A stretch of 64,000 nt of DNA from Escherichia coli (GCF_003334385.1 NZ_QOWN01000001.1); one strand, 5' to 3'. Shown: positions 57,870-60,179, counted from the first letter of the stretch. The notes: generated by a model from the letters alone, not told the origin. Made by a program: numbers and translations.

Positions 57870-58869
57870 TTAGGTTTTGGTCAGTTTCCTGAACTTGCGG
57901 TGGACTGATTCTATCGCGTTGGTTGTGTAGATCACCTTGCGGATATTCGCCGGATAGCGGAAGTACGCTGACAGATTTTCCCTCTTGCGGCGCCAGGACT
58001 GGAGCACCACCGGATATTGCTGCCCCCGTTTCGCTTCCAGCTCATCCAGCGCCGTTTCCGCTGCTTCTTTTGACACCGCACGATACACTGGCTTCAGGTC
58101 GGCCATGAACGCTTTATGGTGTTTTGACGCCACATATTTAATCGAGTTACGTATCTGGTGAATGACGCACAACTGTACCTCTGTCTGCGGATAAATGCTG
58201 TTTATCGCTTCAGGGAAGCCGGTCAGCCCATCCACGCAGGCAATCAGAATGTCTTCAACGCCACGGTTTTGCAGATCACTTAATACTGACAGCCAGAAGT
58301 TAGCGCCTTCGCTTTCCGACAAATACAGGCCCAGGACTTCTTTTTTGCCTTCCAGATTCAGCGCCAGTACGGTATAAACTGCCTTGCTCTGATAACACCC
58401 ATCTTCGCGGATTTTATAGTGAATGGCGTCCAGCCAGACGAAGGGATAAACCTTTTCCAGCGGGCGCTGCTGCCACTGTTTTAACTCAGGAATGACTTTA
58501 TCGGTAACCGCACTGATGGTAGCCGTGGAAACACTGAAGGCATATAAATCTTCGATCTCCCGGCTGATATCCTGGTAGCTCATCCCCAGCGCGAACAGGC
58601 GAATGATCTTGCGCTCGAGCTCATCAGACAACGTGGTCTGGTGCTTCTTCACCAGTTGGGGTTCAAAATAACCATTACGATCACGTGGAGTTGCCAGCTC
58701 AAAGCTGCCAGTCGGGGCTTTAATGGTCTTTTTTCCGGAACCATTTTTACGATTGACTTCAACATCCTGAGCCAGATGGGAGTCGAGTTCAGCGGCCAGA
58801 GCGGTTTCTGTTAACTGTTTGATTAATGGCGTTAGGATACCATCCTTGCCGGTTAATGCTTGGCCGGAT
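57870..58869 (-). pseudogene. IS256-family transposase remnant, truncated at both ends
   Basis: Minus-strand frame is open from the IS629 boundary (...LAAELDSHLAQDVEVNRKNGSGKK...) through MKKHQTTL to the stop at 57870; aligns to the middle of IS256-type (mutator) transposases; about 20 N-terminal and about 40 C-terminal residues are missing. Confidence 0.8.
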
Positions 58870-58923
58870 TGAACCGCCCCGGGAATCCTGGAGACTAAAT
58901 TCCCTGAGAAAGAGGTAAACAGG

Positions 58924-59250
58924 ATGACTAAAAAAACACTTTTTTCCCCCGAAGTCCGTCAACGGGCAGTTCGTATGGTTCTGGAAAGTCAGGGCGAATA
59001 TGACTCACAATGGGCGGCAATTTGTTCCATTGCTCCAAAGACTGGCTGTACGCCGGAGACTCTGCGTGTCTGGGTTCGCCAGTATGAGCGGGATACCGGA
59101 GGCGGTGATGGTGGGCTTACCACCGCTGAACGTCAGCGTCTGAAAGAGCTGGAACGTGAAAATCGTGAACTGCACCGCAGTAACAATATCCTTCGCCAGG
59201 CTTCCGCTTATTTTGCGAAGGCGGAGTTCGACCGCCTCTGGAAAAAATAA
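58924..59250 (+). CDS. IS629 OrfA (HTH transposase subunit)
   Basis: 108 aa [39 protein letters not shown]..., near-identical to recalled IS629 OrfA. Confidence 0.9.
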
Positions 59251-60137
59251 TGCCACTGCTGGATAAGCTGCGTGAGCAGTACGGGGTCGGACCGGTATGC
59301 AGTGAACTGCATATTGCCCCGTCAACGTATTACCACTGTCAGCAGCAGCGGCATCATCCTGATAAACGCTGTACCCGTGCGCAGCGCGATGACTGGCTGA
59401 AGAGAGAGATACAGCGCGTATACGATGAAAATCATCAGGTGTACGGTGTGCGTAAAGTCTGGCGTCAGTTGTTACGGGAAGGAATCAGGGTGGCCAGATG
59501 TACAGTGGCGCGCCTCATGGCGGTTATGGGACTTGCCGGTGTTCTCCGGGGTAAAAAGGTCCGCACTACCGTCAGCCGGAAAACCGTTGCCACAGGTGAC
59601 CGCGTAAACCGTCAGTTCGTGGCAGAACGTCCTGACCAGCTGTGGGTGGCTGATTTTACTTACGTCAGCACATGGCAGGGCTTCGTCTATGTGGCGTTTA
59701 TCATTGATGTGTTTGCTGGATACATCGTGGGGTGGCGGGTCTCATCGTCTATGGAAACGACATTCGTGCTGGATGCGCTGGAGCAGGCGTTGTGGGCCCG
59801 TCGTCCGTCTGGCACCATCCATCACAGCGATAAAGGCTCTCAGTATGTGTCACTGGCCTATACGGAGCGACTAAAAGAAGCCGGATTACTGGCATCAACA
59901 GGGAGTACAGGCGACTCGTATGACAACGCGATGGCTGAGAGCATCAATGGTCTTTACAAAGCGGAGGTAATACACCGTAAGAGCTGGAAAAACCGTGCAG
60001 AAGTGGAACTGGCCACACTAACGTGGGTGGACTGGTATAACAATCGACGATTGCTGGGAAGGCTGGGCCATACTCCTCCGGCAGAAGCAGAAAAAGCTTA
60101 TTATGCTTCCATCGGAAACAATGATCTGGCAGCCTGA
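59250..60137 (+). CDS. IS629 OrfB (DDE integrase-fold transposase)
   Basis: 295 aa with DDE catalytic core (HHSDKGSQY, DNAMAES). Confidence 0.9.
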   Translation: MPLLDKLREQYGVGPVCSELHIAPSTYYHCQQQRHHPDKRCTRAQRDDWLKREIQRVYDENHQVYGVRKVWRQLLREGIRVARCTVARLMAVMGLAGVLRGKKVRTTVSRKTVATGDRVNRQFVAERPDQLWVADFTYVSTWQGFVYVAFIIDVFAGYIVGWRVSSSMETTFVLDALEQALWARRPSGTIHHSDKGSQYVSLAYTERLKEAGLLASTGSTGDSYDNAMAESINGLYKAEVIHRKSWKNRAEVELATLTWVDWYNNRRLLGRLGHTPPAEAEKAYYASIGNNDLAA

Positions 60138-60179
60138 GTTCACAGATAAAACACTCTCCAGGAAACCCGGGGCGGTTCA

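Follow-up and report, generated by a model that had tools for sequence, protein, structure and literature searches.

Organization of the locus

The window, by which is meant the whole 64,000-nucleotide stretch of Escherichia coli DNA that was analysed (NZ_QOWN01000001.1), carries toward its right end the siderophore receptor gene ireA, the remains of an IS256-family element, a single copy of an IS629-type element and the 3′ part of an OLD-family nuclease gene, in that order. This region is 100% identical to E. coli UPEC132, positions in the UPEC132 record being the window position plus 252, and is 99.9-100% identical to S88, APEC O1 and many ST95 and other ExPEC genomes. The ireA gene is the constant left neighbour across all the states of the locus described below. 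A RelE/ParE toxin and HTH antitoxin pair lies between yicN and nepI at about 37150-37990 of the window (UPEC132 record 37405-38244); it is missing in strain 14EC020, where the alignment jumps over that stretch. The features relevant to the junction, in window coordinates, are:

55482..57530, plus strand: ireA, TonB-dependent siderophore receptor gene (RefSeq annotation of the identical UPEC132/S88 DNA; ORF list)
57667..57674: TTTAATTT, the one remaining copy of the 8-bp target duplication of the IS256-like element (AAATTAAA on the transposase strand)
57675..58869, minus strand: IS256-family element remnant, 1195 of about 1300 bp (NF033543, E 1.8e-114; alignment)
58866..58869: GGAT, left copy of the original IS629 target duplication, with one C-to-T change relative to the GGAC of relatives
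58870..60179, plus strand: IS629/IS1203-type element of the IS3 family, apparently intact, 1310 bp (profiles; RefSeq)
58870-58910: left inverted repeat (IRL) of the IS629-type element
58924-59250, plus strand: orfA, 108 aa
59205..59321, plus strand: ALIL pseudoknot (RF01497), frameshift stimulator of IS3-family transposase, 120.9 bits against a gathering score of 50
59250-60137, plus strand: orfB, 295 aa (NF033516, E 8.1e-94)
60139-60179: right inverted repeat (IRR) of the IS629-type element
60180..61756, plus strand: OLD-family ATP-dependent nuclease gene, 3′ part, codons 102-626 (PADLOC Old; breakpoint alignment)
61941..64000, plus strand: beginning of the 15.1-kb block located after the IS (UPEC132 RefSeq annotation; synteny with 14EC020 and VTB97432v)
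61941-62594, plus strand: hypothetical gene (217-aa ORF)
62730-63962, plus strand: ibrA-like PAPS-reductase gene

The IS629-type element

The element, which starts with TGAACCGCC and finishes with GGCGGTTCA, is exactly 1310 bp long, and its ends, TGAACC...GGTTCA, belong to 41-nt imperfect terminal inverted repeats whose arms are 78% complementary. Both of its ORFs match the NCBIfam transpos_IS3 models, and RefSeq annotates the transposase as an unbroken CDS with a programmed frameshift. The copy thus has the length of about 1.3 kb, the 5′-TG...CA-3′ repeats and the overlapping orfA and orfB joined by programmed -1 frameshifting that are expected of the IS3 family. ISfinder regards as isoforms those elements that have at least 95% nucleotide identity to a named element. 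Compared with copies labelled by RefSeq, the window element is 96.7-96.9% identical to O157:H7 copies assigned to the IS1203 family and, over part of its length only, 95.0% identical to a copy assigned to the IS629 family. The name IS629 seems acceptable at isoform level, and it is because of this 95-97% identity to RefSeq-labelled IS1203/IS629 copies that it is used here for an isoform and not for the reference sequence.

The two truncated flanking genes

The remnant to the left of IS629 retains its right inverted repeat and transposase codons 16-400, is 94% identical to an intact 400-aa copy in strain A37, and lacks 15 codons and the approximately 60 bp of upstream end, a total of about 105 bp in comparison with uninterrupted copies. 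The intact relative has the single transposase of about 400 aa that typifies the IS256 family (NF033543, E 1.5e-121). An earlier note, made from the sequence of the window alone, had the family and strand right, while its figure of roughly 20 missing codons becomes 15 on alignment and the position from which it began the feature, 57870, is a frameshift stop and not the end of the element, which reaches to 57675. The stop, at 57870-57872, follows from a 1-nt insertion near 57874, and RefSeq classes the remnant as a frameshifted pseudogene. Copies at the locus that lack IS629 have the same insertion, as all the others do, so the IS256-like element had been inactivated before IS629 arrived. Complete copies end in GGGAGTGTTAGAAATTCTGTGTCA and GAGAGCGTTCAGAATTCTGTGTCA with AAATTAAA on each side, and so possess the terminal inverted repeats and the 8-9 bp target duplication of the IS256 family; alignment places the same 8 bp at both ends of the complete element in SCU-101, KC-Dl-1 and 14EC020. 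The window keeps only one of these ends and one copy of the duplication. A search of all frames of the remnant for an EAST1-like ORF, with a query that we take to be the EAST1 sequence, found none, the best local score being 33 against 212 for the query with itself, and this agrees with the earlier report that astA is not embedded here. In AREA_R485 (extracted locus 6090-9618) the same remnant has gained an extra IS21 insertion, and the IS629 copy is itself truncated with unrelated DNA after it; the IS256/IS629 site keeps accumulating IS events.

On the right, the earlier description of a plus-strand OLD-family gene without its ATPase N-terminus holds. Breakpoint alignment shows that 304 nt, or 101 codons, are gone from the start of a 626-aa gene whose codons 102-626 remain. 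The intact gene is present in VTB97432v and TUM12357; AAA_15/AAA_21 match it at either end of the ATPase region, it has an OLD-like TOPRIM domain (PF20469 OLD-like_TOPRIM, residues 439-503), and its best PADLOC match is Old (E 1.2e-67). The missing codons include the Walker A motif GPNNSGKT, residues 33-40 of the intact relative, so that the N-terminal ABC/AAA ATPase with Walker A expected of an OLD protein is not found in the window copy; the C-terminal TOPRIM is. The fragment retains the C-terminal motifs of the ATPase along with the TOPRIM domain and matches the PADLOC Old model, TOPRIM region included, with E 1.4e-54 over profile positions 113-523 only. As residues 1-101 are missing, Walker A among them, the window copy cannot be a functional OLD member. 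RefSeq nevertheless calls a 482-aa ‘ATP-dependent nuclease’ CDS (WP_001572242.1, window 60308-61756) from an internal start, and this is an annotation artefact, the gene being in fact a pseudogene without its 5′ end.

Among 5426 complete E. coli genomes, the base for all the counts given here, the OLD 3′ part occurs in 133 and the N-terminal 304 nt in 24 only, in each of which they are contiguous with the rest of the gene and the surroundings differ from those in the window. That the 5′ end is confined to those 24 untruncated genomes means that it has been lost from the 109 with a truncated copy and not moved elsewhere in them. Eighteen of the 24 have the gene annotated as a single CDS, and the other 6 are mouse-strain copies that are frameshifted; four single-base deletions are seen in mouse-strain copies (M18), and deletions of the M18 type could be assembly errors. 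Where the 5′ end is intact the gene lies behind a T6SS remnant (3 of 3 genomes examined), and the island of VTB97432v that carries it is at pheV. Nonsense alleles at W104 of an otherwise intact OLD gene, TGA in one assembly (GCA_030511565.1, 8001-8312) and TAG in two others (Logan SRR21482954 and SRR21482957, 359-670), affect a codon two codons away from the IS629 breakpoint (compare window 60180-60190). These sequences suggest a minimum of three or four separate inactivations of the gene when the IS truncation is counted. The IS629 truncation at three tRNA sites, the two W104 nonsense alleles and the multiply frameshifted allele together raise the speculative idea, to which we give little credence, that the OLD nuclease beside ibrAB has been repeatedly selected for loss and that the IS629 joint spread partly by disarming the gene. 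If that were so, an active OLD copy may be costly, for instance through self-targeting or incompatibility with resident mobile elements. The 217-aa ORF at 61941-62594, hypothetical in RefSeq, always comes after the OLD gene, intact or truncated; it had no match to a PADLOC defence family, and its product could be a nuclease partner.

States of the locus among relatives

Three states of the locus can be read from public genomes. In the first, found in 8 of the 5426, the IS256-like element downstream of ireA is uninterrupted, and the order is ireA, IS256-like element, approximately 1 kb, then Gp2-like, hypothetical and HTH genes (e.g. SCU-101, KC-Dl-1). In the second, with 152 genomes, IS629 is present at the exact position and in the orientation of the window copy as a simple insertion with the IS256-like 5′ rest at its right. 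The full window arrangement with both junctions is the third and occurs in 96.

Uninterrupted IS256-like elements read CCGGACTGGAG at the target. In 14EC020, a simple-insertion strain, the sequence runs ...GGCCGGAC, IS629, then GGACTGGAGTGCC..., that is, GGAC, the IS, and GGACTGGAG, so that GGAC on the left is matched by GGAC-TGGAG on the right and a 4-bp duplication surrounds the copy; another IS629 copy, in CFT073, has a 3-bp duplication, TCT/TCT. The left flank of the window copy ends in ...TTGGCCGGAT and the right flank starts with GTTTATGGG, giving GGAT and GTTT, and the earlier note was correct that no duplication of 3-4 bp is present. The missing duplication reflects later rearrangement and not non-membership of the IS3 family. 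Position 58869 is T in every locus read that has a window-type left flank (at least 99% identity), those of CFT073 and AREA_R485 included; the uninterrupted and simple-insertion loci that were read have C there. The 14EC020 group is also distinguished by a 12-nt deletion.

The flanks never continue into each other among relatives. In the 8 genomes whose left flank is free of IS629, the IS256-like element goes on to its other end, and IS-free right-flank relatives run upstream into the OLD N-terminus (24 genomes). It had been proposed that the flanks are not halves of one target, and the IS-free relatives of each flank bear this out; the continuous gene that would have told against the proposal was looked for in them and is not there. 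Given the 152 simple insertions at the same nucleotide with GGAC duplicated, the window junction is therefore a secondary, IS629-associated rearrangement and not a simple insertion, a reading to which we assign a probability of about 0.95. The 152 relatives likewise support the earlier attribution to IS-mediated deletion or recombination rather than simple insertion, with the qualification that deletion is not the whole of it.

This qualification comes from synteny. Homology between UPEC132 and 14EC020 extends from ireA to the end of IS629 and resumes after 835 bp in 14EC020 and 15.1 kb in UPEC132, exactly at the outer end of an IS2-like pseudogene. The DNA lost consists of the last 105 bp of the IS256-like element and approximately 730 bp of island DNA. 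Replacement of 835 bp by a 15.1-kb block is more than a deletion, and the window junction is therefore the left-hand margin of a graft bounded by IS elements. In its first 6 kb the block has the OLD fragment and its hypothetical neighbour, genes resembling ibrA and ibrB, perC and more hypotheticals; this part shares 96% identity with the module located after the intact OLD gene in the islands of VTB97432v and TUM12357, and pgtABCP is in the rest. Beyond the window the block runs through ibrB, perC and pgtABCP to the IS2-like pseudogene. That IS3-family pseudogene (UPEC132 record 74243-75574), the exact right boundary of the block, is itself a rearrangement junction, where pgtP with a hypothetical gene borders on Gp2-like, HTH and pap genes. 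The ibrB-like gene (UPEC132 record 64199-64844) is frameshifted in UPEC132, S88 and CFT073 and intact in VTB97432v and TUM12357.

Exchange between IS629 copies

The IS629 copies of the window and of 14EC020 are far less alike than the DNA beside them. Of the 3478 flank positions 8 are substituted, against 45 of the 1309 within the IS (Fisher p = 2e-18), so that between the lineages the IS is about 15 times more diverged than its flanks. CFT073 compares similarly with the window, with 4 differences in approximately 3490 and 2 in 3821 flank positions and 51 and 40 in its two IS copies. A diverged IS between near-identical flanks means that the IS sequence was overwritten while the flanks stayed. 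The IS629 of S88 has 0 differences from the window IS, and its left flank is 99.9% identical. The differences are spread over positions 14-1154, and the idea that the window IS is a simple fusion of one part of the 14EC020 IS with one part of a different haplotype was rejected on that account.

In CFT073 (NC_004431.1) the two flanks of the window are found on two inverted IS629 copies (extract positions 9379-10688 and 36616-37925, PAI-CFT073-pheU) that bracket a 27-kb segment, inverted relative to UPEC132. Within the inversion lie the pap operon, pgtABCP, ibrAB and the OLD fragment, and one of the copies, ISb, also truncates an AAA-domain gene adjoining the pheU integrase. At the other, ISa, an apparent GAT/GAT duplication was dismissed, since the DNA on its right comes from downstream of papG and in UPEC132 is continuous with other sequence. 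Mosaic typing used 69 sites at which the window haplotype and a third CFT073 copy differ. Left of column 536 all 24 sites in ISb are of the other type, whereas its right part is mostly window-type; in ISa the left part is window-type or mixed, and 36 of the 40 sites on the right are of the other type. Such complementary mosaics are the pattern expected of reciprocal recombination, and they imply that the window arrangement is ancestral to that of CFT073. Together with the divergence of the IS, they point to homologous exchange between IS629 copies acting at this locus.

Origin of the joint

The three states followed one another. The first was the frameshift-inactivated IS256-family element downstream of ireA with its 8-bp duplication, as seen in 8 genomes; the frameshift and the 8-bp duplication are common to all states. 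IS629 then inserted at transposase codon 15/16 with duplication of GGAC, the state of the 152 genomes. Finally the DNA to the right of IS629 was replaced, an outcome that is seen directly and for which we infer the mechanism. The resident IS629 may have recombined, by RecA-type homologous recombination, with a second IS629 copy located within an OLD gene on another island or segment, and the product would be one hybrid IS, bordered on its left by the DNA beside one copy and on its right by that beside the second. Its origin from two copies would explain why no matching duplication is present. The new right flank extends from OLD codon 102 through ibrAB, perC and pgtABCP up to the IS2-like element, and the OLD N-terminus, with whatever preceded it, was lost. 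The joint was then inherited, carried with the island to pheV, pheU and selC, and in CFT073 split again by the 27-kb inversion between two IS629 copies.

Homologous recombination between IS629 copies is, by analogy with the exchanges described above, the most likely mechanism, with chances slightly better than even. It accounts for the C-to-T difference at the end of the left flank only as a point mutation, and the right boundary at the IS2-like element needs a second event. The scatter of differences along the window IS, in place of a single switch between two haplotypes, also speaks against it. The intermediate that it predicts, a simple IS629 insertion in an OLD gene that keeps its N-terminus, was found in no genome or protein record. 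There the OLD N-terminus would meet the IS629 left end, ...CAGAAGTT(T) and then TGAACC; a 304-nt DNA search of complete E. coli genomes did not find the OLD N-terminus joined to the IS629 left end, and a collection of 5.8 billion protein clusters had no such fusion of the 102-aa N-terminal peptide. Apparent 103-aa peptide matches were rejected as the intermediate, being W104 nonsense alleles or contig ends.

The main rival is transposase-mediated deletion adjacent to the IS, in which the right end of the resident IS629 attacks OLD codon 101/102 on the same molecule; the OLD block would first have been placed to the right of the IS and the intervening DNA then deleted, the IS being kept and no new duplication made. 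This is possible, though we think it unlikely. It fits the left junction, which is at the same nucleotide position as in the simple-insertion state as if the copy had stayed put, and the absence of the OLD 5′ end in 109 of 109 genomes with the truncated copy only; IS629-adjacent deletions, the smallest of a few nucleotides and the largest of over 40 kb, have been documented for O157, according to PMC9943667, which cites Kusumoto 2011. It does, however, require a prior unobserved state with the OLD block already to the right of the IS, and the deletions described with IEE accompany IS excision whereas here the IS is retained. A copy that stayed in place would also leave its 15-fold excess of divergence over the flanks, relative to the simple-insertion copy, unexplained without extra gene conversion. 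Recombination with a second copy is preferred also to the improbable case of an independent IS629 insertion at the same IS256-like nucleotide in the window lineage, with the simple-insertion genomes representing a parallel hot-spot event. The IS haplotypes are indeed 3.4% apart, and the last flank base is T in one group and C in the other, but position and orientation are identical and the flanks 99.8% identical; moreover, such an insertion would still leave a duplication and the IS256-like rest, and a secondary rearrangement would still be required. Almost no weight can be given to the idea of a simple insertion with a decayed duplication (GAT versus GTT, with 2 of 3 bases matching between the flank ends) or of an assembly artefact at a repeated element. 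The flanks are unrelated genes with known uninterrupted forms and the identical junction recurs in 96 independently assembled complete genomes, by which this reading is already refuted.

Distribution and comparison with known systems

The joint is at selC in UPEC132, as in the window, at pheU in CFT073 and at pheV in S88, where its coordinates fall inside PAI-S88-pheV as listed in PMC7545054. The ireA-carrying ExPEC islands described there, PAI-CFT073-pheU, PAI-S88-pheV and PAI-APECO1-pheV, have the same genes and junction sequences as the window, with S88 near-identical and UPEC132 100% identical; they differ in that the window copy is at selC and in that the CFT073 segment between two IS629 copies is inverted. 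The joint is an old, inherited feature of this published island family, and may be used as a stable marker for one lineage of ireA/ibrAB/pap islands at pheV, pheU and selC. It also explains the RefSeq nuclease call on the beheaded gene. The three states in public genomes document a single IS copy that was at first an insertion and later a recombination substrate. A literature lead that ‘DanRI’ is ibrAB was discarded as a false text match to ‘Ibrahim’.

With the IS629/IS1203 elements of Shigella and E. coli O157:H7 the window copy shares the 1310 bp, the TGAACCGCC ends, the orfA/orfB -1 frameshift and the ALIL pseudoknot, and differs in being 95-97% identical to RefSeq-labelled copies. The likeness of the remnant to IS1414, an IS256-family element with embedded astA, consists in an IS256-family transposase in a virulence-associated region of E. 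coli; the two were compared by family and astA only, and the remnant, unlike IS1414, has no EAST1-like ORF in any frame. The intact relative of the OLD gene has the N-terminal ABC-type ATPase and C-terminal TOPRIM of OLD nucleases, such as phage P2 Old and the single-gene defence ‘Old’ of PADLOC, to which GajA of Gabija is related, whereas the window copy lacks residues 1-101 with Walker A and has no adjoining helicase partner.

The closest parallel in behavior is with the IS629-associated deletions and rearrangements of E. coli O157 (Ooka 2009 and Kusumoto 2011, both cited by PMC9943667). As in the cases outlined there, an IS629 without matching duplication marks a structural change that truncates its neighbours. 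In contrast to them, the host is ExPEC, the IS is retained and a 15-kb block is gained, and the change is fixed and common to 96 complete genomes instead of being a strain-level polymorphism. The window junction is an ordinary, textbook IS-mediated island rearrangement, already present in sequenced and annotated genomes, and reveals no new mechanism.
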